Shown here: piece by piece, positions 1 to 14,404 of the stretch
How the letters are laid out: every line of letters starts with the position of its first letter
How positions within the stretch are numbered: position 1 is the stretch's first letter
IMG/VR virus record: IMGVR_UViG_3300045988_115137
Source: a virus
Lineage: Duplodnaviria > Heunggongvirae > Uroviricota > Caudoviricetes
Strand: one strand, 5' to 3'
DNA: 21,316 nt
Made by a program: the position numbers and the translations under genes
The notes under the pieces: generated by a model
Told to the model about the DNA's origin: nothing
The model's database searches: none
The model's input: the letters and a program-made list of their open reading frames with translations, nothing else

Positions 1-96
1 ACTGACTTGGTAGCCCCCGCCGCAGCGGTATTTTCTGTTGTATTACAATTAGTTAAATTACTCATATCGCTTCAATTGGCTCTAGTTAACTCTGGT

Positions 97-1092
97 TTAT
101 GGACGCATTATGGACATTCCTGACACCGGGTTAAGAGTCACAGCATCTTGTAAGAAATCCGGTGCAAAGTGTGCGTAGGTCATAGTTTGCTGAATGTTAG
201 AATGACCCAGGATGCGCTGCAATGTGATTATGTTACCTCCATTCATTATAAAATGTGTGGCAAATGTATGCCTCAAAACATGCACTGCCTGTCCGTCAGG
301 TAAATCGGGTTTTACTTCCCTGAGAGCGTTGCGCACTTTGTAGTAACTGGCATTAAAAAGCCTGCCAGAATTTTTGGTTTTGATCCGTTTAATCAAGTCC
401 TGCGAAACGGGAATTGTCCTGCGCTTTCCGTTTTTAGTTTTCATAAACGTAACCATCTGGTTAATGATGTGTTCAGCTTTTAAATTAGACACTTCACTCC
501 AGCGTCCACCAGTAGAAAGGCAGACTAGAGTTGCATTTAATTCATCACCATCGAGCATGGATAACAGCCGCGTAATCTCTTCACTGGACAAAAAAGCCAT
601 TTCCGTAACAGCTTCACGTAACCGCTTAACCTCACGGAACGGGTTATGAGAGTGGTATTCACCGGCGTCAATTAATTTGGTGAACATTCCACTCATTATT
701 GCCAGATGCCGATTTACGCTGGCTGGTTTTAGGCCATCGTTCATCATTACAACGCGATAATCAGTTATCGTTTTCTTTGTTAGCTGGTCAGCTCTGGACA
801 CTCCCATTTCTGCAAATTTGGCGATTATTGTCGTTAAACGCCCCCGTTCAATATCCCCCCGCTCATGCGATTTTCCGTGATATATCCACCATCGGCCTAA
901 CAACTCGGTAAGAGTTCGGCGATCGGCTGGTTTCTCTATCCACTCTTTGTTGTGGTAGTTAACCAAGACATGACGCTCGAATGCCTGAGCTTCACCTTTA
1001 GTTTTAAATTTCCGCCTGATACGTTTCCCATCTGCACCCTGCGGCCTGACGTCCACTTCATAACGACCATCATCGAGCTTTTTAATAGACAT
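97..1092 (-). CDS. int: Tyrosine recombinase / phage integrase (P2 Int-like)
   Basis: 331-aa ORF (coordinates include stop). The C-terminal translation shows tyrosine-recombinase catalytic signatures (HVLRHTFATHF and GHSNIQQTMTYAHF). The minus-strand ATG at 1090-1092 is preceded by a GGAGGG Shine-Dalgarno. It sits at the prophage edge, divergent from the early operon, as in P2. Confidence 0.9.
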   Translation of the reverse strand: MSIKKLDDGRYEVDVRPQGADGKRIRRKFKTKGEAQAFERHVLVNYHNKEWIEKPADRRTLTELLGRWWIYHGKSHERGDIERGRLTTIIAKFAEMGVSRADQLTKKTITDYRVVMMNDGLKPASVNRHLAIMSGMFTKLIDAGEYHSHNPFREVKRLREAVTEMAFLSSEEITRLLSMLDGDELNATLVCLSTGGRWSEVSNLKAEHIINQMVTFMKTKNGKRRTIPVSQDLIKRIKTKNSGRLFNASYYKVRNALREVKPDLPDGQAVHVLRHTFATHFIMNGGNIITLQRILGHSNIQQTMTYAHFAPDFLQDAVTLNPVSGMSIMRP

Positions 1093-1185
1093 AAAGCCCT
1101 CCGATGATGCTGCTTACCTCTACTGCTTGAAAATTAATGCAATTTTCTTTCGCACATTTACTACACACATAAGCTGAATAAATCG

Positions 1186-1485
1186 TCAGCCAATCTTTTG
1201 ATCTGAGTGGTGCAAGGTTGTTGAGTCTTGCCCAATGTGTGCGAGAGCTGGGGCTATTTGACCAGCTGCGGGATCAGTTTCATCAAACATGAACCAGTCA
1301 CGGTATTTACGGAATCTTGGATGTTTTAGAAGCCGCACCACTGCATCATGTGAAATAGATGATTTCCCATTTTCGTACCCTACATACGTAACGTAATTAA
1401 TACCTGTCATTTCAGCTACTTCCTTCTTCTTGAGCCGTTCAGACTCACGGATAAGTTTTAGCTTTTCACGAATCTCAATTGACAT
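1186..1485 (-). CDS. C: Immunity repressor (P2 C-like)
   Basis: 99-aa ORF, the length I recall for P2 repressor C. The C-terminal segment (GQIAPALAH...HSDQK) resembles my recollection of P2 C. It lies between int and the divergent early operon. Confidence 0.75.
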   Translation of the reverse strand: MSIEIREKLKLIRESERLKKKEVAEMTGINYVTYVGYENGKSSISHDAVVRLLKHPRFRKYRDWFMFDETDPAAGQIAPALAHIGQDSTTLHHSDQKIG

Positions 1486-1589
1486 AATGAATCAGATCTC
1501 TTATTTTTAATCCGTTGTGATATTCCACATCTAACTCTAGTCAACTCCAACTAGCTTTAGTTAGTGGGGCCAATTAGGAGAATAGCAAA
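1486..1589. promoter_or_regulatory. Divergent lysogenic/lytic switch region (putative Pc/Pe promoters and operators)
   Basis: 104-bp AT-rich interval between the divergent starts of C (1485, minus) and the cox-like gene (1590, plus). It contains reiterated AACTC / CTAG elements at about one helical turn spacing (1533-1560) and an AGGAG SD at 1576-1580. Exact -35/-10 and operator positions were not resolved. Confidence 0.4.
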
Positions 1590-1946
1590 ATGAATGTCGG
1601 ATCTGAAATTTCTGACGAGACAAGACAAGAACTCTCCGTTCTCACAAAAGCAAAGCGTGATTCCGTTAAATTGGCGGCGGCACCATCAGATTTGCTGTCG
1701 AAAGAAGGTTTTGCACTGTACATCGGCAAGACACCACGAGCGGTGGCTGAAATGGCGAAAGCAGGAAAGCTGCCAGCCTTTTACATGACAGACCCATTAA
1801 AGCCGGGAGGTCATGCTGAGTTATGGATTAATCGTCGTGAGTGGGACAAGTATGCAGCACAGCTAGTCGATGAAGCTCCATCAGAATGGCACGACTGGAA
1901 AAATCGCATTAGTTATAGCAAATCAAGACATGGCCGTGCGGCTTAA
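1590..1946 (+). CDS. Cox/Apl-like excisionase-transcriptional regulator (putative)
   Basis: 118-aa ORF, first gene of the rightward early operon directly opposite C, with AGGAG 10 nt upstream of the ATG. The position matches P2 cox, but the protein is longer than the 91 aa I recall for P2 Cox, so the assignment is by synteny only. Confidence 0.55.
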   Translation: MNVGSEISDETRQELSVLTKAKRDSVKLAAAPSDLLSKEGFALYIGKTPRAVAEMAKAGKLPAFYMTDPLKPGGHAELWINRREWDKYAAQLVDEAPSEWHDWKNRISYSKSRHGRAA

Positions 1947-1956
1947 GGTGGAAAGG

Positions 1957-2127
1957 ATGAAGGAGCCGCGTTGTATTGCTCAGTTATTGCGTAACGAAAG
2001 CCCCAGGGCGATTGACTTCACCATCACCCACGGTAAGGGGCGTAAGGGAATCATTATCCGTACCAAAAAACAGAGTCCGTTAAAAAAGGCTCTGACCTTT
2101 CTGAAAAGCCGGAGGGTCTGGAAATGA
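1957..2127 (+). CDS. Small basic hypothetical protein (orf78-position early gene)
   Basis: 56-codon ORF from ATG 1957 (track lists a longer 1870 start inside cox). It is preceded by AAGGTGGAAAGG, and its TGA overlaps the ATG of the next gene (ATGA at 2124-2127), suggesting translational coupling. Confidence 0.4.
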   Translation: MKEPRCIAQLLRNESPRAIDFTITHGKGRKGIIIRTKKQSPLKKALTFLKSRRVWK

Positions 2128-2624
2128 CAGTGATGACACTTAATCTCGTCGAAAAACAGCCAGCAGCTATGCGCCGGATAATTGGTAAGCATCTGGCCGT
2201 CCCTCGCTGGCAGGAGACATGTGATTATTATAATCAGATGATGGAACGTGAACGGCTAACGGTTTGCTTCCATGCGCAGTTAAAACAACGTCACGCAACG
2301 ATGCGTTTCGAAGAAATGAACGATGTCGAACGTGAACGGCTGGTTTGTGCAATTGATGAATTGCGTGGGGCATTCTCAAAACGCCGTCAGGTCGGTGCAA
2401 GTGAGTATGCATATATTAGTTTTTTAACAGTCAGTCAGCGGCGTACTTTATTTATGCATGCCGGATTGACAGAAAAAGAATTCAACCAGCCATACTGGCG
2501 AATTAATGAAGAATCATGTTACTGGCGTGATGCTTTATTCCGTGCATTACGTGAATTATTCAGTCTGTTTGAGTATGCACCGACAATTCTGACGTCGGTA
2601 AAACCAGAGCAATATCTGCATTAA
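2124..2624 (+). CDS. B: P2 B-like replication protein (putative helicase-loader)
   Basis: 166-aa ORF, the length I recall for P2 B, at the syntenic position between cox and A. GGAGGG SD upstream. Assigned by synteny and size only. Confidence 0.5.
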   Translation: MTVMTLNLVEKQPAAMRRIIGKHLAVPRWQETCDYYNQMMERERLTVCFHAQLKQRHATMRFEEMNDVERERLVCAIDELRGAFSKRRQVGASEYAYISFLTVSQRRTLFMHAGLTEKEFNQPYWRINEESCYWRDALFRALRELFSLFEYAPTILTSVKPEQYLH

Positions 2625-2687
2625 GTAATTAACCAGAGTTTTTAACGCACTTAATCGTGCGGGGCTTCTTTTTGCCTGGAGAAAGTT

Positions 2688-2912
2688 ATGCATACAGTTT
2701 CTGAAAATCAGTGCGGTAAATACGCATTACTGCTGCAACAGGCCAGAACCGAAGCACAGGCCGACGCTGCGACGCGCTTTTCTTCTCATCTTGATGCCAT
2801 GATTCGCCACATCACAAAGGCGGAGTTATCCCGCGTGGAGATAGTCGAGCTGCTCAGTCAGGAGTCGGAAAAATTTCACAATATCGGATTGTCTCGCGGG
2901 GAGGTGCTTTGA
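2688..2912 (+). CDS. Hypothetical early protein (orf80 position)
   Basis: 74-aa ORF with GGAGAAAG SD 4 nt before ATG 2688; its stop overlaps the next start (TGATG). Confidence 0.5.
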
Positions 2913-3214
2913 TGTCCTGTTCTCGTTCAGTTGTATTACTGAATAACGCCTTAAAAATCGCCGTTATGAAAAATGGCGATTTGTCTCTTATTCAACTTGG
3001 TCTTGATAAAGAAAAACGCGAAATAACTGAGTCTGTTATCGCGATTTATCAGAACGAATTAAACCTCCTGTCTGATGTGGTCAATTTACTTGTTAAACGC
3101 GCTGTGTTTCACAAGCAAATTTCCTCCGTGGATGAACTGACGAAATTAACGACAGAAATCGCCAGCTATTGCGCTGATGAATTTAAAAAACTGAACGACA
3201 AAAGGAACTGGTAA
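2912..3214 (+). CDS. Hypothetical early protein (orf81 position)
   Basis: 100 aa from ATG 2912 (track start 2909 is a TTG). GGGAGG SD upstream; stop/start overlap (TAATG) with the next gene. Confidence 0.5.
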   Translation: MSCSRSVVLLNNALKIAVMKNGDLSLIQLGLDKEKREITESVIAIYQNELNLLSDVVNLLVKRAVFHKQISSVDELTKLTTEIASYCADEFKKLNDKRNW

Positions 3215-3438
3215 TGCCGGACAACGTAGATTTTATTCAGGAACAACAGGCTGAATTACTGGAGCGCCAGATTAACGCGGCAAGGGTAAAACATTGCGGT
3301 GCTTCTGCGCTGGTTTGCGAAGAGTGTGACGCGCCAATACCTGCTGCCCGTCGTGCGGCTTACCCGTCAGCCACGCGTTGTGTTTCCTGTCAGTCAGTCT
3401 TTGAAGCAAAAAACAAACATTACCGGAGAACGGCATGA
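3214..3438 (+). CDS. TraR/DksA-family C4 zinc-finger protein
   Basis: 74-aa ORF with two CxxC pairs (VCEEC ... RCVSC) in the arrangement typical of phage TraR/DksA-like zinc-binding proteins. Syntenic with P2 orf82. Coupled to neighbours by overlapping stop/start codons. Confidence 0.7.
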   Translation: MPDNVDFIQEQQAELLERQINAARVKHCGASALVCEECDAPIPAARRAAYPSATRCVSCQSVFEAKNKHYRRTA

Positions 3439-3710
3439 GTATTCGTATTGAAATTGGCGAACGTTATGTCGTTACCAGTGACAGCTTTCAGTTTATTCTC
3501 CACGAGAAAAAGAGAGCGGAAAGCGGTAAAAACGCCGGTCAGGAATGGCTGGCGGTGGTTGGTTATTACCCGAAATTAAGCCAGCTCGTTTCCGGCCTGA
3601 TGCATCACGATATTCTGACCGGAAGCGCAAAGTCTTTTGCTGATTTAAACGCGCAGGTTGAGCAACTCAGCAAGCGTTGTTCAGAGGCTTTTGGCTCATA
3701 TGGCCGTTAA
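3435..3710 (+). CDS. Hypothetical early protein (orf83 position)
   Basis: 91-aa ORF; ATG 3435 overlaps the upstream stop (ATGA); its 3' end overlaps the start of A by 11 nt. Confidence 0.5.
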   Translation: MSIRIEIGERYVVTSDSFQFILHEKKRAESGKNAGQEWLAVVGYYPKLSQLVSGLMHHDILTGSAKSFADLNAQVEQLSKRCSEAFGSYGR

Positions 3711-5979
3711 AGCCTCCGGGCGTTTTGTCCCTCCGTCAGCATTTGCCGCAGGCACCGGTGAGACGTTTACCGGTGCTTATGCATGGAACGCGCCACGCGA
3801 GGCCGTCGGGCGCGAAAGACCCCTTACACGTGACGAGATGCGTCAGGTGCAAGGTGTTTTATCCACGATTAATCGCCTGCCTTACTTTTTGCGCTCGCTG
3901 TTTACTTCACGCTATGACTACATCCGGCGCAATAAAAGCCCGGTGCACGGGTTTTATTTCCTCACATCCACTTTTCAGCGTCGTTTATGGCCGCGCATTG
4001 AGCGCGTTAATCAGCGCCATGAAATGAACACCGACGCGTCGTTGCTGTTTCTGTCAGAGCGTGACCACTATGCGCGCCTGCCTGGAATGAATGACAAGGA
4101 GCTGAAAAAGTTTGCCGCCCGTATCTCATCGCAGCTTTTCATAATGTATGAGGAACTCTGCGATGCCTGGGTGGATGCGCATGGCGAGAAAGAATCGCTG
4201 TTTACGGATGAGGCGCAGGCTCACCTGTATGGTCATGTTGCTGGCGCTGCACGTGCTTTCAATATTTCCCCGCTCTACTGGAAAAAATACCGTAAAGGGC
4301 AGATGACCACGAGGCAGGCATATTCTGCCATTGCCCGTCTGTTTAACGATGAATGGTGGACTCATCAGCTTAAAGGCCAGCGTATGCGCTGGCATGAGGC
4401 GTTACTGATTGCTGTCGGGGAGGTCAATAAAGACCGTTCTCCTTATGCCAGTAAACATGCCATTCGTGATGTGCGTGCGCGCCGCCAGGCAAATCTGGAA
4501 TTTCTTAAATCGTGTGACCTTGAAAACAGGGAAACCGGCGAGCGCATCGACCTTATCAGTAAGGTGATGGGCAGTATTTCTAATCCAGAAATTCGCCGGA
4601 TGGAGCTGATGAACACCATCGCCGGTATTGAGCGTTACGCCGCCGCAGAGGGTGATGTGGGGATGTTTATCACGCTGACCGCGCCGTCAAAGTATCACCC
4701 GACACGTCAGGTCGGAAAAGGCGAAAGTAAAACCGTGCAGCTTAATCACGGCTGGAACGATGAGGCATTTAATCCAAAGGATGCGCAGCGTTATCTCTGC
4801 CGTATCTGGAGCCTGATGCGCACGGCATTCAAGGATAATGATTTACAGGTCTACGGTTTGCGTGTCGTCGAGCCACACCACGACGGAACGCCGCACTGGC
4901 ATATGATGCTTTTTTGTAATTCACGCCAGCGTAACCAGATTATCGAAATCATGCGTCGCTATGCGCTCAAAGAGGATGGCGACGAAAGAGGAGCCGCGCG
5001 AAACCGTTTTCAGGCAAAACACCTTAACCGGGGCGGTGCTGCGGGATATATCGCGAAATACATTTCAAAAAACATCGACGGCTATGCACTGGATGGTCAG
5101 CTCGATAACGACACCGGCAGGCCGCTGAAAGACACTGCAGCGGCTGTTACCGCATGGGCGTCAACGTGGCGCATCCCGCAATTTAAAACGGTTGGCCTGC
5201 CGACAATGGGGGCTTACCGTGAACTACGCAAATTGCCGCGCGGCGTCAGCATTGCTGATGAGTTTGACGAGCGCGTCGAGGCTGCACGCGCCGCCGCAGA
5301 CAGTGGTGATTTTGCGTTGTATATCAGCGCGCAGGGTGGGGCAAATGTCCCGCGCGATTGTCAGACTGTCAGAGTCGCCCGTAGCCCGTCGGATGAAGTT
5401 AACGAGTACGAGGAAGAAGTCGAGAGAGTGGTCGGCATTTACGCGCCGCATCTCGGCGCGCGTCATATTCATATCACCAGAACGACGGACTGGCGCATTG
5501 TGCCGAAAGTTCCGGTCGTTGAGCCTTTGACTTTAAAAAGCGGCATCGCCGCGCCTCGGAGTCCTGTCAATAACTGTGGAAAGCTCACCGGTGGTGATAC
5601 TTCGTTACCGGCTCCCACACCTTCTGAGCACGCCGCAGCAGTGCTTAATCTGGTAGATGACGGTGTTATCGAATGGAATGACCCGGAGGTCGTGAGGGCG
5701 CTCAGAGGTGCATTAAAACACGGCCTGAGAAGACCAAACCGTCAGCAAAGAAACGGAAGCCCGTTAAAACCGCATGAAATAGCGCCATCGGCCAGACTGA
5801 CCCGGTCTGAACGATTGCAAATCACCCGTATCCGCGTTGACCTTGCTCAGAACGGTATCAGGCCGCAGCGATGGGAGCTTGAGGCGCTGGCGCGTGGCGC
5901 GACCGTAAATTATGACGGGAAAAAATTCACGTATCCGGTCGCTGATGAGTGGTCGGGATTCTGGCATCAATTTGAGTAA
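3700..5979 (+). CDS. A: Rolling-circle replication initiator endonuclease (P2 gpA-like)
   Basis: 759 aa from ATG 3700 (MAVKASGRF...); the track start at 3658 is a TTG codon. An HUH-type motif (PHWHMMLF) and a paired-tyrosine motif (GYIAKYISK, Y-x3-Y) are visible. Size is close to the ~761 aa I recall for P2 A. Confidence 0.9.
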   Translation: MAVKASGRFVPPSAFAAGTGETFTGAYAWNAPREAVGRERPLTRDEMRQVQGVLSTINRLPYFLRSLFTSRYDYIRRNKSPVHGFYFLTSTFQRRLWPRIERVNQRHEMNTDASLLFLSERDHYARLPGMNDKELKKFAARISSQLFIMYEELCDAWVDAHGEKESLFTDEAQAHLYGHVAGAARAFNISPLYWKKYRKGQMTTRQAYSAIARLFNDEWWTHQLKGQRMRWHEALLIAVGEVNKDRSPYASKHAIRDVRARRQANLEFLKSCDLENRETGERIDLISKVMGSISNPEIRRMELMNTIAGIERYAAAEGDVGMFITLTAPSKYHPTRQVGKGESKTVQLNHGWNDEAFNPKDAQRYLCRIWSLMRTAFKDNDLQVYGLRVVEPHHDGTPHWHMMLFCNSRQRNQIIEIMRRYALKEDGDERGAARNRFQAKHLNRGGAAGYIAKYISKNIDGYALDGQLDNDTGRPLKDTAAAVTAWASTWRIPQFKTVGLPTMGAYRELRKLPRGVSIADEFDERVEAARAAADSGDFALYISAQGGANVPRDCQTVRVARSPSDEVNEYEEEVERVVGIYAPHLGARHIHITRTTDWRIVPKVPVVEPLTLKSGIAAPRSPVNNCGKLTGGDTSLPAPTPSEHAAAVLNLVDDGVIEWNDPEVVRALRGALKHGLRRPNRQQRNGSPLKPHEIAPSARLTRSERLQITRIRVDLAQNGIRPQRWELEALARGATVNYDGKKFTYPVADEWSGFWHQFE

Positions 5980-6068
5980 GGATCTCATCTATACAGTATA
6001 AGTAGTTTTGACTGTAATTGATTGTTTTTTATATGGTTGCATGCATTAAATCTACGTCAATATCATTA

Positions 6069-6077
6069 TGTTATAAT
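6069..6077 (+). promoter_or_regulatory. Extended -10 promoter element (TGtTATAAT) for the plus-strand cargo operon
   Basis: Exact TGnTATAAT match at 6069-6077, about 29 nt upstream of the first cargo ATG (6106), in an AT-rich leader. The -35 is weak. The palindrome TTGCATGCA (6037-6045) lies where a -35 or operator would be. Confidence 0.4.
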
Positions 6078-6105
6078 GCATTACTTAAAAATGTTGGAGA
6101 TAAAA

Positions 6106-6297
6106 ATGTTAAAGCCTGCAGATGTTAATTGTTTGAAAAGCGGTGGATTTAAAATGACTGTATCTGACTCTACTGAAACTCATGCTAAATGTATTTGGCA
6201 TGATAAAGAAGGAGTTTTGCACGAGGAGTCATTCTCCATTGATTTACTGGAAATAGCAGAGAGTAAAAGTGGTATGCTTTGTCGTCCACGTAAGTGA
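6106..6297 (+). CDS. Small hypothetical protein, first gene of the cargo operon
   Basis: ~63 codons from ATG 6106, with GGAG at 6096-6099. The track's 91-aa version starts at a TTG at 6022. Alternative in-frame ATGs exist at 6091 and 6154, so the start is uncertain. AT-rich; ends 27 nt before the 226-aa gene. Confidence 0.35.
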   Translation: MLKPADVNCLKSGGFKMTVSDSTETHAKCIWHDKEGVLHEESFSIDLLEIAESKSGMLCRPRK

Positions 6298-6324
6298 ATC
6301 ATAATAAAATTCACGGGGGAAAGT

Positions 6325-7005
6325 ATGAAACAATACAGCGAATTAGAAAACAATGTTAAGAGATTCATTGTTGAGCATGAAAAAGGGATTTCTATTGATG
6401 ATATTCATCATAAGTTCCGGATGAAGGATGGTCAGAATCGCAAGATGGCAGATTATCTTATTGATAATAAAAAGATAATTTTGGAGATGAAAAGTCTTTT
6501 TTCTGACAGGGTCAAGAATGTCAATGATAAACTGAATGAGTTGGTTAAAACTGATAGTTGGCTTGCAAAAAACTGGCATGGTGCTATTCATTTAGAAGAG
6601 TTGATAAAAAGACACCCAGACTCAAAGCGATTTAGAAATGATATAATGAACTTTGCTTATGAAAATATTAAAACAAAGATAGTTAAGGAAGCTAATAAGC
6701 AAATAAATGCAACAAAGGATGTTTTGGATTTAAATGACTCGATTGGCGGGTTGATTTTGTTAAATGATAATGTCTTTTCACATGAGTCTAATTATTTGTC
6801 AGATGAAATATTATATTTGCTAGGCACAAAGAGATATTCGAGTGTTGAGTTTGTGGTTTATATTGCAAAATTGATTGATAAACAGGTTGATGTTTGTGTG
6901 CTACTTGACAGTCAATCTAAAAATAAAAATTATATTGAATGGTATATGAATAATGTTTTTTTATTGAACTGGGCGTCTTTTAATAAATATGCAATAAAGA
7001 TGTAG
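6325..7005 (+). CDS. Hypothetical protein, candidate anti-phage defense component (226 aa, no recognisable domain)
   Basis: Clean ORF with a strong SD (GGGGGAAAG) 6 nt before ATG 6325. Lys/Asn/Ile-rich composition; about 30% GC by hand count of 6301-6360. Sits at the A-cos variable locus in the tin-like position and orientation. No Walker A, HNH, reverse-transcriptase or zinc-finger motif seen. Confidence 0.6.
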   Translation: MKQYSELENNVKRFIVEHEKGISIDDIHHKFRMKDGQNRKMADYLIDNKKIILEMKSLFSDRVKNVNDKLNELVKTDSWLAKNWHGAIHLEELIKRHPDSKRFRNDIMNFAYENIKTKIVKEANKQINATKDVLDLNDSIGGLILLNDNVFSHESNYLSDEILYLLGTKRYSSVEFVVYIAKLIDKQVDVCVLLDSQSKNKNYIEWYMNNVFLLNWASFNKYAIKM

Positions 7006-7324
7006 TGGTGTGGATGGATATGAAATGAGTCAACCAAGATGCACCTTGGTCAGTAATCTCATGTGAGATACCACATATAACACCAAAAGTGTCAGGTTGA
7101 TGGCCATTGTTCACCGTTTACAGCAGATTATGGTCAACGAAAATCTGACGCCTGACGAGCTGGTCGGGTGTGCCGAAATAGTCTGGGATAATTACGGGCG
7201 GTTTAACTATATCGGTCAGTCCAGAGTTGCGCCACCACCACGCAGACGATAGAGAACGCCGCCAGTCGTGAAACTTGTTTTCAGGCTGGCGGGGTTGAAC
7301 AACGAGCGAAGTGAGGCGTTAGCA

Positions 7325-8266
7325 TTAAGTTAATTTTAATGAATGGTACTCTATCGAGCTGATTGTAGATGCGATATATTTACGATCATTTACAGAGAGT
7401 ATTGCCGCTAGTAGACGACATACCAGAGCCTGCATTTGTAGCAATATATCGCTACCATATTGACAATCATTGATACTAGAGAAACCAAGCGGTTGCCCAT
7501 TAAAAATGGCTTCATGAAAATTATCATTGCGTATAACTGAAACATTACATTCATCTGTTGCCCATGACGGGATTTTTACACCGTAATTTTCGCACATCCA
7601 ATATACTCTATTTTGATGAGATGGTTTTTTCTCTTTAATGACTTTATCCCTTTCATCCCATGCTATAGCAAAACAGCAATCAAGAGCCATATAAAGATAC
7701 TGGAATTTCTCAAAGGAAAGGTATAGTGGGTTATGTGACAGGAATAGGGAGTGTATCACCGCAGCTATTCTTTTAATGGAGCGATCATCTTTTTGTTTGT
7801 CTTTTATATAGTTAAGTGCTAGCTCTATTACTTCTTTTTCAGAGCATCCAACGAGAATAAAGTCGGTTAACTTAGTGGGCTTGATAGTGGTTGCATCAAG
7901 AAAACCAGCGTCAGTGGTTGTCAATCTTATACCCTTGAAAAAAGAGAGGCACCACACAACAAAGTTGAGAGTTTCTAACGAGGATGTGTTTTTTAATTTT
8001 AGTGTGTGCGTTTTGGGCATGCCGAATACTCGGTAACTATAAGGCATTGTGCATGTGTCACCATTAAGGTTATATACCTTTCGATTCCCAGGGTATATCC
8101 AACCATTAACAACGTTTTTATCATTGTTAATACGTTCCACGTTCTCAATAAGACCGGGTAAAGTACGCAAAGAAAATTGTTCAGTCTCAATGTTAACTTC
8201 TACTGGATAGTATCCAAACTCCGAAATAATCTCATTTGGTTGCTGTTCGTCAACTTCACCTTGCAT
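7325..8266 (-). CDS. Hypothetical protein, candidate anti-phage defense/abortive-infection component (313 aa, no recognisable domain)
   Basis: ORF with ATG at 8264-8266 (minus) preceded by GGAGAAAG at 6-nt spacing. AT-rich. Transcribed leftward from the cos-proximal side, like old in P2, but it lacks the Walker A/ATPase signature expected of Old. Confidence 0.6.
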   Translation of the reverse strand: MQGEVDEQQPNEIISEFGYYPVEVNIETEQFSLRTLPGLIENVERINNDKNVVNGWIYPGNRKVYNLNGDTCTMPYSYRVFGMPKTHTLKLKNTSSLETLNFVVWCLSFFKGIRLTTTDAGFLDATTIKPTKLTDFILVGCSEKEVIELALNYIKDKQKDDRSIKRIAAVIHSLFLSHNPLYLSFEKFQYLYMALDCCFAIAWDERDKVIKEKKPSHQNRVYWMCENYGVKIPSWATDECNVSVIRNDNFHEAIFNGQPLGFSSINDCQYGSDILLQMQALVCRLLAAILSVNDRKYIASTISSIEYHSLKLT

Positions 8267-8504
8267 AACTTTCTCCGTTCAAAAACAGGCACGATAATTC
8301 TCGTAAGCCTATCATGTTCGCAAAGTATCCATACCTGTGGATTTTGTAAATTTAAGTTGATTTGTCATTAAATAAGCCGTTGCATGCAACAAGTGAATGT
8401 TTTTGCATGCGTCGGGGATGTCCGTTCAGGCTGCGTGCGGTCAGGACTGGTGCGGATCCATAGTATCTATGCAACTGCATTAAAACCGCCCCATGAAGCG
8501 GGCG

Positions 8505-8523
8505 GGCGAGGCGGGGAAAGCAC
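8505..8523. other. cos site (19-nt cohesive end sequence, P2-type)
   Basis: The sequence GGCGAGGCGGGGAAAGCAC at 8505-8523 matches the P2 cohesive-end sequence as I recall it. It lies between the variable locus and portal gene Q, as in P2. Confidence 0.6.
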
Positions 8524-8555
8524 TGCGCGCTGACGGTGGTGCTGATTGTATTTTT

Positions 8556-9725
8556 TCAGCGTCTCAGCGCGTCGTGACGGCGCTTAGTCTGCCCGTTGAG
8601 GCGTTGTGTGTCTGCGGGGTGTTTTGTGCGGTGGTGAGCGTGTGAGGGGGGATGACGGGGTGTAAAAAAGCCGCCCGAAGGCGGGGAGGTTATGCGCTGG
8701 TCAGTGTCCAGTGAGTAGTTTTTAAAGCGGATGACCTCCTGACCGAGCCAGCCGTTTATTTCCCGAATTCTGTCCTGTAACGGGATAAGCTCATTGCGGA
8801 CAAAGACCTTTGCCACTTTCTCAATATCTCCCAGTGACCCGACGTTCTCCGGCTTGCCGCCCATCAACTGAAAGGGGATACGGTGCGCGTCCAGCAGGTC
8901 AGCGGCGCTGGCTTTTTTGATATTAAAAAAATCGTCCTTCGTTGCCACTTCACTGAGCGGGATAATTTTAATGCCGTCGGCTTTCCCCTGCGGGGCATAG
9001 AGAAACAGGTTTTTAAAGTTGTTGCGGCCTTTCGACTTCACCATGTTTTCGCGAAGCGTTTCGATATCGTTGCGATCCTGCACGGCATCGGTGACGTACA
9101 TGATGTATCCGGCATGTGCGCCGTTTTCGTAATACTTGCGGCGGAACAGCGTGGCCGACTCATTCAGCCAGGCAGAATTAAGGGCGCTGAGATATTCCGG
9201 CAGGCCGTACAGCTCCTGATTAATATCCGGCTCCAGCAGGTGAAACACGGAGCCGGGCGCGAAGGCTGTCGGCTCGTTGAAGGACGGCACCCACCAGTAA
9301 ACATCCTCCTCCACGCCACGACGGGTATATTTGGCCGGTGAGGTTTCCAGTCTGATGACCTTACCGGTGGTGCTGTAACGCTTTTCCAGAAACGCATTAC
9401 CGAACACCAGAAAATCCAGCACAAAGCGGCTGAAATCCTGTTGCGAAAGCCACGGATGCGGGATAAATGTCGAGGCCAGAATATTGCGTTTAACGTAAAT
9501 CGGTGAGCTGTGATGCACGGCAGCACGCAGGCTTTTTGCCAGACCGGTAAAGCTGACCGGCGGCTCATACCATCTGCCGTTACTGATGCACTCGACGTAA
9601 TCCAGAATGTCACGGCGGTCGAGTACCGGCACCGGCTCACCAAAGGTGAATGCCTCCATTTTCGGGGCGCTGGCGGTCATTGTTTTTGCCGCAGGTTGCG
9701 GTGTTTTCCCTTTTTTCTTGCTCAT
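8556..9725 (-). CDS. Q: Portal protein (P2 gpQ-like); ORF as found carries a probable C-terminal read-through extension
   Basis: 389-aa ORF starting MSKKKGKTPQ..., with its ATG overlapping the stop of P (TGATG). I recall P2 Q as 344 aa. The last ~45 codons are Pro/Arg/His-rich and cross the terminator hairpin, so the true product probably ends near plus-coordinate 8691. Confidence 0.85.
   Translation of the reverse strand: MSKKKGKTPQPAAKTMTASAPKMEAFTFGEPVPVLDRRDILDYVECISNGRWYEPPVSFTGLAKSLRAAVHHSSPIYVKRNILASTFIPHPWLSQQDFSRFVLDFLVFGNAFLEKRYSTTGKVIRLETSPAKYTRRGVEEDVYWWVPSFNEPTAFAPGSVFHLLEPDINQELYGLPEYLSALNSAWLNESATLFRRKYYENGAHAGYIMYVTDAVQDRNDIETLRENMVKSKGRNNFKNLFLYAPQGKADGIKIIPLSEVATKDDFFNIKKASAADLLDAHRIPFQLMGGKPENVGSLGDIEKVAKVFVRNELIPLQDRIREINGWLGQEVIRFKNYSLDTDQRITSPPSGGFFTPRHPPSHAHHRTKHPADTQRLNGQTKRRHDALRR
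8664..8685 (-). terminator. Putative intrinsic terminator at the end of the leftward P-Q late operon
   Basis: On the minus strand a GC stem CCGCC / GGCGG with a 4-nt loop is followed directly by TTTTTT (plus strand: AAAAAA 8664-8669, then CCGCC-CGAA-GGCGG 8671-8684). Confidence 0.45.
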
Positions 9726-11497
9726 CAGTAAAACTCCAGAATGGTGGATGTCAGCGGGGTGCTGATACCGGCGGTGAGTGGCTCATTTAACAGGGCGTGC
9801 ATGGTCGCCCAGGCGAGGTCGGCGTGGCTGGCTTCCTCGCTGCGGCTGGCCTCATAGGTGGCGCTGCGTCCGCTGCTGGTCATGGTCTTGCGGATAGCCA
9901 TAAACGAGCTGGTGATGTCGGTGGCGCTGACGTCATATTCCAGACAGCCACGGCGGATAACGTCTTTTGCCTTGAGCACCATTGCGGTTTTCATTTCCGG
10001 CGTGTAGCGGATATCGCGCGCGGCGGGATAGAACGAGCGCACGAGCTGGAACACGCCGACACCGAGGCCGGTGGCATCAATTCCGATGTATTCGACGTTG
10101 TATTTTTCGGTGAGTTTGCGGATGGATTCAGCCTGAGTGGCAAAGTCCATGCCTTTCCACTGGTGACGCTCAAGTATTCTGAATTTGCCACCGGCCACCA
10201 CCGGCGGTGCCAGTACCACGCATCCGGCGCTGTCGCCACGGTGTGACGGGTCGTAACCAATCCATACCGGTCGGGAGCCGAACGGATTTGCGGCAAACGG
10301 CGCATAGTCTTCCCATTCTTCCAGCGTGTCGACCATGCAGCGTTGCAGCTCCTCGAACGGGAATACCGACGCCTTGTCGTCAACAAATTCACACATGAAC
10401 AGGTTTTTAAAATCGTCGGCGCTGTTTTCGCGTTTAAGCTGCTCAATGTCGAACAATGTGCAGCCACCTTTCAGGGCGTCCTCAATGGTGACAATCTGCC
10501 GCCACTGGCCGTCCGCACAGAGAAGACCTCCGGCAAGGGCGTTATGACTGACGTCGATTTCCACGCGTTCGGCGGCGCTGGCGCGTCCCCGGTTAAACAG
10601 TTCACCGGACCAGAACGGATAGGCGTCGTGCGCCAGCGTGGACGGGGTGGAGAAATAGGTCGAGCGCAGGTGACTCTGTGAGGCCATACCTGATGCCACC
10701 TTACGCAGTACCTGAAAATTCGGGATCCAGAAAATCTCGTCGACGTACAGGTCGCCGTTATGGCTCTGTGCGGTGTTGGAGTTGGTGCCGAGAAAAATCA
10801 GTTTTGCGCCGTTATTGCCCAGGACAATCGGGTCACCGGTCAGGTCAACGTCAACCAGCCGGGCAAAGGCGATGATGTATTCACGGAACACATACGCCTG
10901 CGTTTTACTGGCCGACAGAAAAATCTGGTTATGACCGGTTTTCAGGGCGCGCAGCAGTGCCTCGCGGGAAAAATAAAACGTCGCGCCAATCTGGCGGGAT
11001 TTCAGGATATCGCGGATGCGGTGCTCAAGCCCGGCGCGATACCAGTGCAACTGATAGTCGAAAGACTGCTCAAAGAAAATCTGCTCCAGCTTTTCGATGG
11101 CCTCGTCACTGAAAAAATTTTTTTTCGGTTTGCGCCGCCCGCCTTTGTTGCGGTTAGCGACGTTCGGATTAAGGTCTGCCTCGTTGCCGGTCTGGCTGTA
11201 ACGATTTACCCGTGCCAGTCGTTCAATCTGGCGTCCCAGCAGGTCAATTTCCTTGAAGTCACCGCCGGTTTTCTGCGGTTTGATGATGAGCTGGGTCAGC
11301 CGCGCTTCCAGGCTCATTTCGACACGGCTGATGGGGGCAACGCTGTCCCAGCCGTCGCGCTGTTTCCAGCTCTGCACCGTCGGGCGTTTCATCTGCAACA
11401 TGGCGGCAATCTGCGGCACGGAAAACCCCTGCCAGTACAGCAGCGCCGCCTGACGACGCGGGTCGTGTAAAAGAGTGGTGTCTGTGGTGATGGTCAT
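9725..11497 (-). CDS. P: Terminase large (ATPase) subunit (P2 gpP-like)
   Basis: 590 aa from ATG 11495-11497 (MTITTDTT...); the track start at 11527 is a TTG. The length matches my recollection of P2 P. Its stop overlaps the Q start. Confidence 0.9.
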   Translation of the reverse strand: MTITTDTTLLHDPRRQAALLYWQGFSVPQIAAMLQMKRPTVQSWKQRDGWDSVAPISRVEMSLEARLTQLIIKPQKTGGDFKEIDLLGRQIERLARVNRYSQTGNEADLNPNVANRNKGGRRKPKKNFFSDEAIEKLEQIFFEQSFDYQLHWYRAGLEHRIRDILKSRQIGATFYFSREALLRALKTGHNQIFLSASKTQAYVFREYIIAFARLVDVDLTGDPIVLGNNGAKLIFLGTNSNTAQSHNGDLYVDEIFWIPNFQVLRKVASGMASQSHLRSTYFSTPSTLAHDAYPFWSGELFNRGRASAAERVEIDVSHNALAGGLLCADGQWRQIVTIEDALKGGCTLFDIEQLKRENSADDFKNLFMCEFVDDKASVFPFEELQRCMVDTLEEWEDYAPFAANPFGSRPVWIGYDPSHRGDSAGCVVLAPPVVAGGKFRILERHQWKGMDFATQAESIRKLTEKYNVEYIGIDATGLGVGVFQLVRSFYPAARDIRYTPEMKTAMVLKAKDVIRRGCLEYDVSATDITSSFMAIRKTMTSSGRSATYEASRSEEASHADLAWATMHALLNEPLTAGISTPLTSTILEFY

Positions 11498-11670
11498 GAA
11501 TACCTCGCCGTGATGAATACACGGCAAGGCTACTGAGTCGCGCCCCGCGATTCGCTAAGGTGCTGTTGTGTCAGTGATAAGCCATCCGGGACTGATGGCG
11601 GAGGATGCGCATCGTCGGGAAACTGATGCCGACATGTGACTCCTCTAATCACTATTCAGGACTCCTGACA
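11498..11670. promoter_or_regulatory. Divergent late promoter region between P and O (putative)
   Basis: 173-bp interval between the divergent P (minus) and O (plus) starts, where P2 places two activator-dependent late promoters. I found no exact TGT-N12-ACA dyad by eye, so this is positional inference only. Confidence 0.3.
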
Positions 11671-12525
11671 ATGGCAAAAAAAGTCTCAAAATTCTTTCGT
11701 ATCGGCGTTGAGGGTGACACCTGTGACGGGCGTGTCATCAGTGCGCAGGATATTCAGGAAATGGCCGAAACCTTTGACCCGCGTGTCTATGGTTGCCGCA
11801 TTAACCTGGAACATCTGCGCGGCATCCTGCCTGACGGTATTTTTAAGCGTTATGGCGATGTGGCCGAACTGAAGGCCGAAAAGATTGACGATGATTCGGC
11901 GCTGAAAGGCAAATGGGCGCTGTTTGCGAAAATCACCCCGACCGATGACCTTATCGCGATGAACAAGGCTGCGCAGAAGGTCTACACCTCAATGGAAATT
12001 CAGCCGAACTTTGCCAACACCGGCAAATGTTATCTGGTGGGTCTGGCCGTCACCGATGACCCGGCAAGCCTCGGCACGGAATACCTGGAATTCTGCCGCA
12101 CGGCAAAACACAACCCTCTGAACCGCTTCAAATTAAGCCCTGAAAACCTGATTTCAGTGGCAACGCCTGTTGAGCTGGAATTTGAAGACCTGCCTGAAAC
12201 CGTGTTCACCGCCCTGACCGAAAAGGTGAAATCCATTTTTGGCCGCAAACAGGCCAGCGATGACGCCCGTCTGAATGACGTGCATGAAGCGGTGACCGCT
12301 GTTGCTGAACATGTGCAGGAAAAACTGAGCACCACTGAGCAGCGCCTCGCTGAGATGGAAAACGCCTTTTCCGCACTTAAGCAGGATGTGACTGACAGGG
12401 CGGATGAAACCAGCCAGGCATTCACCCGCCTGAAAAACAGTCTCGACCACACCGAAAGTCTGACCCAGCAGCGCCGCAGCAAGGCCACCGGCGGTGGCGG
12501 TGACGCCCTGATGACGAACTGCTGA
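11671..12525 (+). CDS. O: Capsid scaffolding protein (P2 gpO-like)
   Basis: 284 aa from ATG 11671 (MAKKVSKFF...); the track start at 11605 is upstream and in frame. The length matches P2 O as recalled. It is directly upstream of the major capsid gene. Confidence 0.85.
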   Translation: MAKKVSKFFRIGVEGDTCDGRVISAQDIQEMAETFDPRVYGCRINLEHLRGILPDGIFKRYGDVAELKAEKIDDDSALKGKWALFAKITPTDDLIAMNKAAQKVYTSMEIQPNFANTGKCYLVGLAVTDDPASLGTEYLEFCRTAKHNPLNRFKLSPENLISVATPVELEFEDLPETVFTALTEKVKSIFGRKQASDDARLNDVHEAVTAVAEHVQEKLSTTEQRLAEMENAFSALKQDVTDRADETSQAFTRLKNSLDHTESLTQQRRSKATGGGGDALMTNC

Positions 12526-12583
12526 CCGGCGTCAGTCAGTCCGGGAAAACCTTCACGATTAACCCTTAATTTCAGGAAAAACT

Positions 12584-13657
12584 ATGCGCCAGGAAACCCG
12601 CTTTAAATTTAATGCCTACCTGTCCCGTGTTGCCGAACTGAACGGCATCGACGCCGGTGATGTGTCGAAAAAATTCACCGTTGAACCGTCGGTCACCCAG
12701 ACCCTGATGAACACCATGCAGGAGTCCTCTGACTTTCTGACCCGCATCAACATTGTGCCGGTCAGCGAAATGAAAGGGGAAAAAATTGGTATTGGTGTCA
12801 CCGGCTCCATTGCCAGCACCACCGACACCGCCGGTGGCACCGAGCGTCAGCCGAAGGACTTCTCGAAGCTGGCGTCAAACAAGTACGAATGCGACCAGAT
12901 TAATTTCGATTTTTATATCCGCTACAAAACGCTGGACCTGTGGGCGCGTTATCAGGATTTCCAGCTCCGTGTCCGTAACGCCATTATCAAACGCCAGTCC
13001 CTTGATTTCATCATGGCCGGTTTTAACGGCGTGAGGCGTGCCGAAACCTCTGACCGCAGCAGCAATCCGATGCTGCAGGATGTGGCGGTCGGCTGGCTGC
13101 AGAAATACCGCAATGAAGCCCCGGCGCGCGTGATGAGCAAGGTCACTGACGAGGAAGGTCACACGACCTCTGAGGTCATCCGCGTGGGTAAGGGCGGTGA
13201 TTATGCCAGCCTCGATGCACTGGTGATGGATGCGACCAACAACCTGATTGAGCCGTGGTATCAGGAAGACCCTGACCTTGTGGTGATTGTGGGGCGTCAG
13301 CTACTGGCGGACAAGTATTTCCCCATCGTTAACAAGGAGCAGGACAACAGCGAGATGCTGGCCGCTGACGTCATCATCAGCCAGAAACGCATCGGCAACC
13401 TGCCGGCGGTACGCGTCCCGTACTTCCCGGCGGATGCGATGCTCATCACGAAGCTGGAAAACCTGTCCATCTACTACATGGATGACAGCCATCGCCGCGT
13501 GATTGAGGAAAACCCGAAACTCGACCGCGTGGAGAACTACGAGTCAATGAATATTGATTACGTGGTGGAAGACTACGCCGCCGGTTGTCTGGTGGAAAAA
13601 ATTAAGGTCGGTGATTTCTCCACACTGGCTAAAGCGACCGCAGAGCCGGGAGCGTAA
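12584..13657 (+). CDS. N: Major capsid protein (P2 gpN-like)
   Basis: 357-aa ORF with ATG at 12584 and an AGGA-type SD; length and position match P2 N. Confidence 0.9.
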   Translation: MRQETRFKFNAYLSRVAELNGIDAGDVSKKFTVEPSVTQTLMNTMQESSDFLTRINIVPVSEMKGEKIGIGVTGSIASTTDTAGGTERQPKDFSKLASNKYECDQINFDFYIRYKTLDLWARYQDFQLRVRNAIIKRQSLDFIMAGFNGVRRAETSDRSSNPMLQDVAVGWLQKYRNEAPARVMSKVTDEEGHTTSEVIRVGKGGDYASLDALVMDATNNLIEPWYQEDPDLVVIVGRQLLADKYFPIVNKEQDNSEMLAADVIISQKRIGNLPAVRVPYFPADAMLITKLENLSIYYMDDSHRRVIEENPKLDRVENYESMNIDYVVEDYAAGCLVEKIKVGDFSTLAKATAEPGA

Positions 13658-13660
13658 CCG

Positions 13661-14404
13661 ATGACGAGTCCCGCACAGCGCCACATGATGCGGGTCTCGG
13701 CAGCGATGACCGCGCAGCGGGAAGCCGCCCCGCTGCGACATGCAACTGTCTATGAGCAGATGCTGGTTAAGCTCGCCGCAGACCAGCGCACACTGAAAGC
13801 GATTTATTCAAAAGAGCTGAAGGCCGCGAAAAAACGCGAACTGCTGCCGTTCTGGTTGCCGTGGGTGAACGGCGTGCTGGAGCAGGGCAAAGGTGCACAG
13901 GATGACATTCTGATGACAGTCATGCTGTGGCGTCTGGATACCGGCGATATTGCCGGTGCGCTGGAGATTGCCCGTTATGCCCTGAAGTACGGTCTGACCA
14001 TGCCGGGTAAACACCGCCGCACCCCGCCGTACATGTTCACCGAGGAGGTGGCGCTCGCGGCCATGCGCGCTCACGCTGCCGGTGAGTCTGTGGATCCCCG
14101 CCTGCTGACGGACACCCTTGAACTGACCGCCACGGCTGACATGCCTGATGAAGTGCGCGCAAAGCTGCACAAAATCACCGGTCTGTTTCTGCGTGACGCT
14201 GGTGATGCCGCAGGGGCGCTGGCACACCTGCAACGTGCGACACAGCTCGACTGTCAGGCAGGCGTCAAAAAAGAGATTGAACGACTGGAGCGGGAGCTGA
14301 AACCGAAGCCGGAGCCACAACTCAAAGCGGCCACCCGCGCCCCGCGTAAGACCCGGAGCGTGACACCGGCAAAACGTGGACGCCCGAAAAAGAAAGCCAG
14401 TTAA
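13661..14404 (+). CDS. M: Terminase small/endonuclease subunit (P2 gpM-like)
   Basis: 247-aa ORF with a basic Lys/Arg-rich C-terminus, directly after N; length matches P2 M as recalled. Confidence 0.85.
   Translation: MTSPAQRHMMRVSAAMTAQREAAPLRHATVYEQMLVKLAADQRTLKAIYSKELKAAKKRELLPFWLPWVNGVLEQGKGAQDDILMTVMLWRLDTGDIAGALEIARYALKYGLTMPGKHRRTPPYMFTEEVALAAMRAHAAGESVDPRLLTDTLELTATADMPDEVRAKLHKITGLFLRDAGDAAGALAHLQRATQLDCQAGVKKEIERLERELKPKPEPQLKAATRAPRKTRSVTPAKRGRPKKKAS

Follow-up and report, generated by a model that had tools for sequence, protein, structure and literature searches.

Three solo HEPN proteins, HepS, ApeA and DARNA, are anticodon nucleases that are switched on by phage cues (PMC13043305; bioRxiv 2026.01.26.701840; bioRxiv 2026.02.22.705581). 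HepS, an abortive-infection protein of the Salmonella Gifsy-1 prophage, is triggered by the tail tip (Sargen et al., Nature 2026, PMC13043305), ApeA by deoxydinucleotides (Juozapaitis et al., bioRxiv 2026.01.26.701840) and DARNA by single-stranded DNA (ssDNA) bound to SSB (Puteikiene et al., bioRxiv 2026.02.22.705581). The gpA-gpQ locus of P2-like prophages was documented as a defence hotspot by Rousset et al. 2022, who cite Odegrip et al. 2006 for this variable locus (PMC9122126). Here, we analysed the cargo of this slot in a window of 21,316 nucleotides, the whole stretch of viral DNA under IMG/VR record IMGVR_UViG_3300045988_115137. The cargo is an AT-rich island that encodes a small DUF2158 protein and two larger proteins, ORF226 and ORF313. 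In 27 complete E. coli genomes, island and flanks recur at 99-100% identity, and the source sequence is an E. coli P2-like prophage. With a probability of roughly 60%, we read the island as a composite of two independent modules in the gpA-gpQ defence hotspot, a PD-(D/E)xK nuclease accompanied by DUF2158 and a solo HEPN abortive-infection RNase; both modules are most likely anti-phage genes of familiar kinds, as far as their sequences tell. Wherever enzymatic activity, trigger or anti-phage phenotype is named below, we refer to predictions that stand next to the observed location, composition, modularity, distribution, conserved motifs and predicted folds.

Positions 5980 to 8504, no strand: AT-rich island (37% GC) with the cargo of the gpA-cos-gpQ hotspot, P2-like E. 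coli prophage.
Positions 6106 to 6297, plus strand: DUF2158 (YodC-family) protein, 63 amino acids, Pfam PF09926, RefSeq WP_001547483, first gene of the plus unit.
Positions 6325 to 7005, plus strand: ORF226, predicted PD-(D/E)xK nuclease, 226 amino acids, PHROG 20483, protein 1 of system #63 of Rousset et al. 2022.
Positions 7065 to 7322, no strand: semi-conserved hotspot linker between the modules, 49-51% GC, holding the RefSeq open reading frame (ORF) 7097-7252.
Positions 7325 to 8266, minus strand: ORF313, predicted solo HEPN-type RNase, 313 amino acids, PHROG 5937, family of system #11 of Rousset et al. 2022.

The island shares its gpA-gpQ slot, its low GC content and the possession of own, here putative, promoters with P2 old/tin and with Rst_DUF4238, Rst_3HP, DprA+PRTase and 2TM-1TM-TIR, and it lies between gene A and cos/Q, so that the sequence-only reading, which had put it at the old/tin hotspot of P2-like phages, located it properly. 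That reading also gave the gene layout as we found it, with two convergent units comprising an ORF of about 63 amino acids and a 226-amino-acid protein on the plus strand and a 313-amino-acid protein on the minus strand. No BLASTP similarity was detected between the island proteins and Tin, orf91, DUF4238 or the three Rst_3HP proteins (Old was outside the set); Rst_3HP ('hp+hp+hp', pFR109) was rejected as an identity at E >= 0.65, and identity with the 'putative HEPN' of pFR103 was ruled out by BLASTP as well. Scans of the three island proteins with PADLOC, Pfam, NCBIfam and PHROGs yielded nothing beyond DUF2158 and two PHROGs without an assigned function. The PADLOC run had been suggested along with the sequence-only reading, and none of its models matches.

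The cassette had been put forward as an undescribed module; it is in fact already catalogued, since AM157369 covers it and Rousset et al. 2022 list its parts under #11 and #63. GenBank entry AM157369.1, 'Bacteriophage P2-EC67 proviral ORF226 and ORF313', contains all three ORFs (as ORF73/ORF226/ORF313), and its ORF226 is 99.1% and its ORF313 81.2% identical to the window proteins. Title and host point to the ECOR survey of P2-like prophages by Odegrip et al. 2006 as the most likely source of the entry. The exact set WP_032179103 + WP_072164333 + WP_023136039 + WP_001547483 is among the P2 hotspot loci in Table S5A of Rousset et al., and Table S5B, which also gives the protein sequences, lists ORF226 (99.1% identical) together with the 63-amino-acid protein as system #63, 'DUF2158', with 67 occurrences (PMC9122126). 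System #11 of the same table, with no Pfam assignment and 218 occurrences, is a single 312-amino-acid protein 68.6% identical to ORF313, whose family ranks 11th in frequency among E. coli P2 hotspot cargo in that survey (PMC9122126). A literature search by WP accession gave no mention, and the 2026 follow-up assayed unannotated loci only from the P4 satellite (PMC13586616).

Is the island one system or two? It had been taken for a single module, a view that is not supported, as the ORF313 and ORF226 units are each found without the other. Judged by the distribution of its parts, the island is made up of two independent cargo modules joined at the linker. Of 5426 complete E. coli genomes, 99 carry a member of the ORF313 family, which falls into three allele groups with DNA identities of at least 99%, about 84% and about 74%. 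DUF2158 and ORF226 occur in 27 complete E. coli genomes, all 27 of which also carry ORF313, and ORF313 is found without ORF226 in 72 others. The partner of DUF2158 and ORF226 can also be an 85% allele of ORF313. In other prophages, ORF313 is accompanied by a hypothetical protein, DinI and a second hypothetical protein, or by an ImmA/IrrE peptidase and a hypothetical protein; in the free Yersinia phage vB_YpM_46, a 99.7% identical ORF313 goes with a DUF3850 (P2 orf91-like) gene and a small gene. Outside P2-like phages, ORF313 is solitary and has no conserved neighbour across taxa. Its homologue in P. aeruginosa (loci L002-L006, around 6001-12960) sits in an island with DUF932 and ParB_N genes and has a Gabija-like GajA/GajB pair (OLD-like TOPRIM ATPase and UvrD helicase) about 3 kb downstream; Aeromonas homologues adjoin an AlkZ-like gene amid housekeeping genes, and those of Acinetobacter and Stenotrophomonas lie in variable regions. 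Conversely, a Citrobacter P2-like prophage carries an ORF226 homologue and DUF2158 with a different third gene of 250 amino acids and without ORF313, and on IncFII-type plasmids of Pantoea the ORF226 homologue stands alone, with no DUF2158 ORF upstream. The cassette is swappable across P2-like prophages, as had been proposed: the same flanks hold other cargo in SMS-3-5, SF-468, SCPM-O-B-12142, Citrobacter and vB_YpM_46, and in SMS-3-5 the island position is taken by DUF3850 and restriction-modification-like genes. The exchange of cargo is seen among prophages that are nearly identical in other respects.

The joint between the two modules is itself a recurring element. Copies of the linker with about 91% identity are present in 374 complete E. 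coli genomes, where they form a small gene located after a DUF3850/orf91-like gene and before other cargo; SMS-3-5 and Yersinia phage vB_YpM_46 show this context. One RefSeq feature is annotated within it:

Positions 7097 to 7252: RefSeq ORF of 51 amino acids, 'meiotically up-regulated 80 protein', dubious.

Since the linker copies elsewhere are a small gene following DUF3850, this ORF is most likely a gene remnant, and its label is almost certainly a spurious name. By the pattern of its copies, the linker may serve as a homologous anchor for cassette exchange.

ORF313 was analysed through its family. A word-indexed search yielded homologues in at least 260 sequence clusters from Gammaproteobacteria, all of them unnamed except for one UniRef entry, an 'Apea-like HEPN domain-containing protein'. 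An alignment of 39 sequences that are 44-79% identical to the window protein has 52 invariant columns, including R246, N247, H251 and E252, which belong to the following motif:

Positions 7511 to 7531, minus strand: Rx4H motif of ORF313, R246-N-D-N-F-H251-E252, invariant in 39 homologues.

The canonical HEPN motif is Rx4-6H with a polar residue after the arginine, and ORF313 has this form, with the polar N247 following R246. An AlphaFold2 model (mean predicted local distance difference test score, pLDDT, 82; predicted template modelling score 0.83) shows a beta-rich N-terminal domain (amino acids 1-140) and a helical C-terminal domain (amino acids 143-300). Conservation of the N-terminal domain, with the motifs FGYYP, KTH, WCLSFFxGxRLT and GFLDAT, equals or exceeds that of the HEPN part, and in the searches made the domain matched neither a solved fold nor any hidden Markov model (HMM). 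In a profile search with the ORF313 alignment against PDB sequences, ribonucleotide reductase R2 came up at chance level (E of about 0.02 over 41 residues) and was dismissed.

As a separate observation, the primers of clone pFR104 of Rousset et al. ('Peptidase + TM', non-protective) would span an ORF313 homologue in prophages of the L018 type (positions 1003-4782 in L018). Proteins of TA280, the strain from which pFR104 was taken, are 88% and 55% identical to their L018 counterparts, and pFR104 is listed as two genes; if TA280 carries an ORF313 homologue, an allele of the 74%-DNA-identity group has already proven negative against eight phages.

How does ORF313 compare to the described solo HEPN defences? 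ApeA (HEPN_Apea, Gao et al. 2020) likewise acts in defence as a single HEPN protein whose catalytic domain is C-terminal, as predicted for ORF313, and HEPN_Apea genes are also found in P2 and P4 hotspots. However, ApeA comprises about 580 amino acids, is built of all-alpha N, Mid and split-HEPN domains and assembles into decamers or dodecamers, whereas ORF313 has 313 amino acids and a beta-rich N-terminal domain. On account of this different architecture, and with Pfam HEPN_Apea and PADLOC negative for the 39 family members, membership of ORF313 in ApeA was rejected. With DARNA/PD-T7-3, ORF313 shares the predicted features of an E. coli solo HEPN protein acting by abortive infection through a separate sensor domain, but DARNA has its HEPN domain (R117-H122) at the N-terminus and a large helical domain that senses ssDNA at the C-terminus, the opposite of the order in ORF313. 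This reversed domain order and the negative PADLOC result led us to discard this identity, too. A type III toxin-antitoxin or RNA-antitoxin HEPN system (AbiF-like) was dropped as well: positions 5900-8700 contain no tandem repeat array, just two short two-copy repeats, and Rfam gave no significant match.

The second module consists of ORF226 and the preceding DUF2158 gene. ORF226 starts 27 nucleotides past the DUF2158 ORF and has its own purine-rich ribosome-binding site. A word-indexed search found 26 close relatives, from Enterobacterales, and an exhaustive profile HMM search 348 relatives. Two sites stand out:

Positions 6451 to 6492, plus strand: putative catalytic hairpin of ORF226, D43-YLIDNKKIIL-E54-M-K56, from alignment and model.
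Positions 6700 to 6702, plus strand: invariant Q126 of ORF226, within A-N-K-Q-I-x-x-T-K in helix 113-134.

D43, E54, K56 and Q126 are invariant across 80 sequences with identities down to about 20%, and the first three likewise in a set of 56 sequences. In the AlphaFold2 model of ORF226 (pLDDT 88.8), strands 44-46 and 51-58 form a beta-hairpin in which D43 lies just before the first strand and E54-x-K56 on the second, the arrangement of a PD-(D/E)xK catalytic hairpin. Thus, both the D...(D/E)xK signature on adjacent strands and, in the model, a restriction-endonuclease-like alpha/beta core fold were found, while Pfam, NCBIfam and PADLOC models, including the curated PD-(D/E)xK family models, gave no match. 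We assign ORF226 to the PD-(D/E)xK superfamily with moderate confidence, on the strength of motif and predicted fold. The sequence-only reading had found no known family or signature in any of the three proteins, which turned out differently in each case: the 63-amino-acid ORF is a DUF2158 protein, ORF313 has an invariant R-N-x3-H and ORF226 an invariant D...ExK on a restriction-endonuclease-like fold.

More distant relatives add context to ORF226. Pfam Mrr_cat matches among them were withdrawn as support for its fold, since they fall into a separate N-terminal domain of fused proteins of 560-740 amino acids, and hhalign between the ORF226-like domain and the Mrr_cat-matching N-terminal domain was negative. 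The fusion does give the ORF226-like domain a restriction-enzyme-like context. In the metagenomic proteins P0162, P0166, P0182 and P0249 (560-740 amino acids), this domain is C-terminal, at about amino acids 346-510; P0166, P0182 and P0249 have the N-terminal Mrr_cat match and P0182 ends in a SEC-C zinc motif. By their domain order, these fused proteins look like a two-nuclease-domain architecture. Weak DpnII-MboI matches also occur among the distant relatives (best E 0.0011). A 41% identical ORF226 homologue (L020, positions 5001-6539) is located in a prophage directly after a CI-like repressor (HTH_3 and Peptidase_S24); a DUF4238 gene and a serine recombinase lie back-to-back with it, and a BamHI-type restriction-modification system is a few kb away. 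Judged by its gene content, this locus is a prophage-end defence cluster. DUF4238 is a defence gene validated in the P2 hotspot by Rousset et al. 2022 (PMC9122126). Relatives of ORF226 also share an island with genes for GIY-YIG, Mrr_cat and SLATT proteins.

Among effectors with a restriction-endonuclease fold, BsmI/N.BspD6I-type nuclease domains, NucC of CBASS, CdiA-CT toxins and XisH come closest to ORF226. Unlike these, it has a long helical insertion (amino acids 63-134) that separates the catalytic hairpin from the next core strand and lacks a methyltransferase, cyclase or immunity partner; in the Pfam, NCBIfam and PADLOC scans, it resembled none of them at the sequence or HMM level. Its small neighbour matches Pfam DUF2158 with E = 7e-6 and 26.1 bits, above the cutoff of 22.3 bits, and accompanies ORF226 only in P2-like prophages of E. 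coli and Citrobacter. No DUF2158 ORF was found beside the ORF226 homologues of the Pantoea plasmids, the P0147 prophage and P0153, and for this reason DUF2158 is not an obligate antitoxin. The test for obligate co-occurrence was thus negative, and we rejected a type II toxin-antitoxin pair of DUF2158 and ORF226.

For both modules, a mode of action can be proposed. ORF313 would be made constitutively in the lysogen as an inactive, auto-inhibited oligomer, its non-catalytic domain would sense an infection cue, and the activated protein would cleave tRNA or other RNA and thereby abort the infection, by analogy in the manner of the solo HEPN defences HepS, ApeA and DARNA. In ORF226, D43, E54 and K56 are predicted to form the active site of an enzyme that might cut the nucleic acid of an incoming phage or, once triggered, that of the host, either like a type IV restriction enzyme acting on modified phage DNA or like NucC as an activated suicide nuclease, with DUF2158 as a possible dispensable accessory or regulator. 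A more far-reaching interpretation, which we consider doubtful albeit conceivable, is that ORF313 founds a widespread new solo HEPN immune family whose N-terminal domain is a new kind of sensor with a trigger unlike those of HepS, ApeA and DARNA, and that ORF226 founds a new stand-alone PD-(D/E)xK defence family.

Several results weigh against the composite of two defence modules. The model of ORF313 has a pLDDT below 50 over residues 247-271, which cover most of the motif from N247 on; Pfam, NCBIfam and PADLOC HMMs, the curated HEPN models included, match neither ORF313 nor any of the 39 members of its family, and Foldseek of the model against the PDB gave nothing significant. Neither system #11 nor #63 is among the cloned systems in Table S2A/B of Rousset et al., and the P2 hotspot also holds non-defence cargo, e.g. 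partition systems and cytolethal distending toxin (PMC9122126). The HEPN assignment was made by setting motif conservation, the name of the one annotated homologue and the AlphaFold2 model against the null Foldseek and HMM results; on balance, sequence and model make ORF313 a probable, divergent HEPN protein. Rather unlikely, in our view, is the opposite case, in which ORF313 is no HEPN RNase at all, the Rx4H motif and the likeness to a helical bundle are coincidental, and the protein has another activity, possibly centred on its conserved N-terminal domain. One or both modules might also serve purposes other than phage defence, as addiction or toxin-antitoxin-like elements, as genes of benefit to the phage (anti-defence, recombination or host-takeover nucleases) or as neutral cargo. 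This would be in line with the other cargo of the hotspot, with the missing PADLOC match, with the Aeromonas homologues of ORF313 amid housekeeping genes beside the AlkZ-like gene, and with the small protein upstream of a nuclease, a layout that DUF2158 and ORF226 have in common with two-gene toxin-antitoxin systems. However, DUF2158 is missing beside the ORF226 homologues of the P0147 prophage and the Pantoea plasmids, ORF313 lacks a conserved partner of any kind, and solo HEPN proteins without antitoxins are established defences. Moreover, both families recur in variable islands by known defence genes, with relatives of ORF313 adjoining Gabija and those of ORF226 adjoining DUF4238, and six of eight randomly picked unannotated loci of the P4-satellite hotspots were protective in the 2026 study (PMC13586616). 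We thus regard a non-defence role as unlikely.

The whole island could also be a single three-gene system, for instance one in which nuclease and RNase effectors obey a common sensor. The presence of ORF313 in all 27 E. coli genomes with DUF2158 and ORF226 speaks for such a system, and so does the placement of the short sequence TTGCATGC, all four copies of which lie upstream of one or the other unit and could point to joint regulation. Against it stands that ORF313 lives without ORF226 in the 72 other E. coli genomes, in vB_YpM_46 and in Aeromonas, Pseudomonas, Acinetobacter and Stenotrophomonas, that ORF226 homologues exist without ORF313, and that a near-identical ORF226 module (98.6-99.8%) goes with ORF313 alleles 15% apart. 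Rousset et al. curated the two as separate systems, #63 and #11 (PMC9122126), and the count of TTGCATGC is not significant across the window, as 18 of 100 shuffles also reach four. A single system is therefore quite improbable, and two modules that were brought together in one slot remain our preferred interpretation.

The borders and composition of the island were also determined. Its right boundary is marked by one feature:

Positions 8505 to 8523, plus strand: cos cohesive-end sequence GGCGAGGCGGGGAAAGCAC, 19 nucleotides, an exact and single match.

We take this 19-mer to be the cohesive end of P2; the number of matches expected by chance in the sequence is 0. It is also contained in P2 hotspot clones of Table S2 of Rousset et al. 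2022 (PMC9122126). On the left, the island begins after the stop codon of gene A, an ORF of 773 amino acids at 3658-5979 (RefSeq 'replication endonuclease'), and the portal gene downstream of cos starts near 8693. Gene A stop at 5979 and cos at 8505 are the limits named by the sequence-only reading, and its sharp drop from about 70% to about 30% GC also stood up: our recount gave 0.300 at 6301-6360 and 0.717 at 13681-13740, exactly as counted by hand. The GC content of the island is 0.370 (37.0%) as compared to 0.483 in the left and 0.569 in the right flank, and a scan of all windows of 2525 bp placed the one with the lowest value (0.366) at a start of 5901. The drop is uneven, with 0.30 in ORF226, 0.37 in ORF313, 0.38 in DUF2158 and 0.49 in the spacer 7006-7324. 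Low GC is not peculiar to the island within the 21-kb sequence, since the left end (positions 1-3657, by position integrase, repressor and early genes) also lies clearly below the late region, with 45% versus 57%.

Both transcription units are preceded by potential control elements, which were recorded as matches to promoter, ribosome-binding-site and hairpin consensus sequences only.

Positions 5980 to 6105, plus strand: upstream region of the plus unit, consensus matches.
Positions 8267 to 8504, minus strand: upstream region of ORF313, consensus matches.

The plus unit is preceded by a sigma-70-like site TTGACT-18-TATGGT (6008-6037), a TATAAT (6072-6077) and, as ribosome-binding site, GGAG (6096-6099), and ORF313 by a promoter-like site ATGACA-16-CAAAAT at 8368-8341 on the minus strand. 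GC-rich terminator-like hairpins on the minus strand are located at 8486-8505, overlapping the left edge of cos, and at 8671-8684, just after portal gene Q; together, by sequence, they would insulate ORF313 from read-through of the late (Q) operon. Own promoter-like sites and terminator-like hairpins are consistent with expression of both units in the lysogen. The TTGCATGC copies, all four of the 21-kb window, map to 6037-6044, 8380-8389 and 8403-8410, those upstream of ORF313 being TTGCATGC(A) palindromes at 8380-8389 and 8403-8410; by this placement, they could form an operator shared by both upstream regions. One copy makes the palindrome TTGCATGCAA. Between the ORF313 promoter region and cos, a 15-nucleotide sequence, TCAGGCTGCGTGCGG, is repeated twice in tandem at 8426-8455 and may be part of an extended cos or terminase-binding region.

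Our results do not overturn current thinking, as both the locus and the kinds of effectors are those specialists expect; their main value lies in a well-specified experimental target. Neither module is detected by PADLOC v2, and if either one were confirmed, it would be a named and mechanistically tractable addition to the catalogued defences of E. coli. Of the two, ORF313 is the more useful target, being a common single gene with a broad distribution in Gammaproteobacteria and a conserved putative sensor domain. The composite with its recurring linker provides a concrete example of cassette mixing in P2 hotspots, and ORF313, by virtue of its highly conserved putative sensor domain, could reveal another way in which solo HEPN nucleases are switched on.

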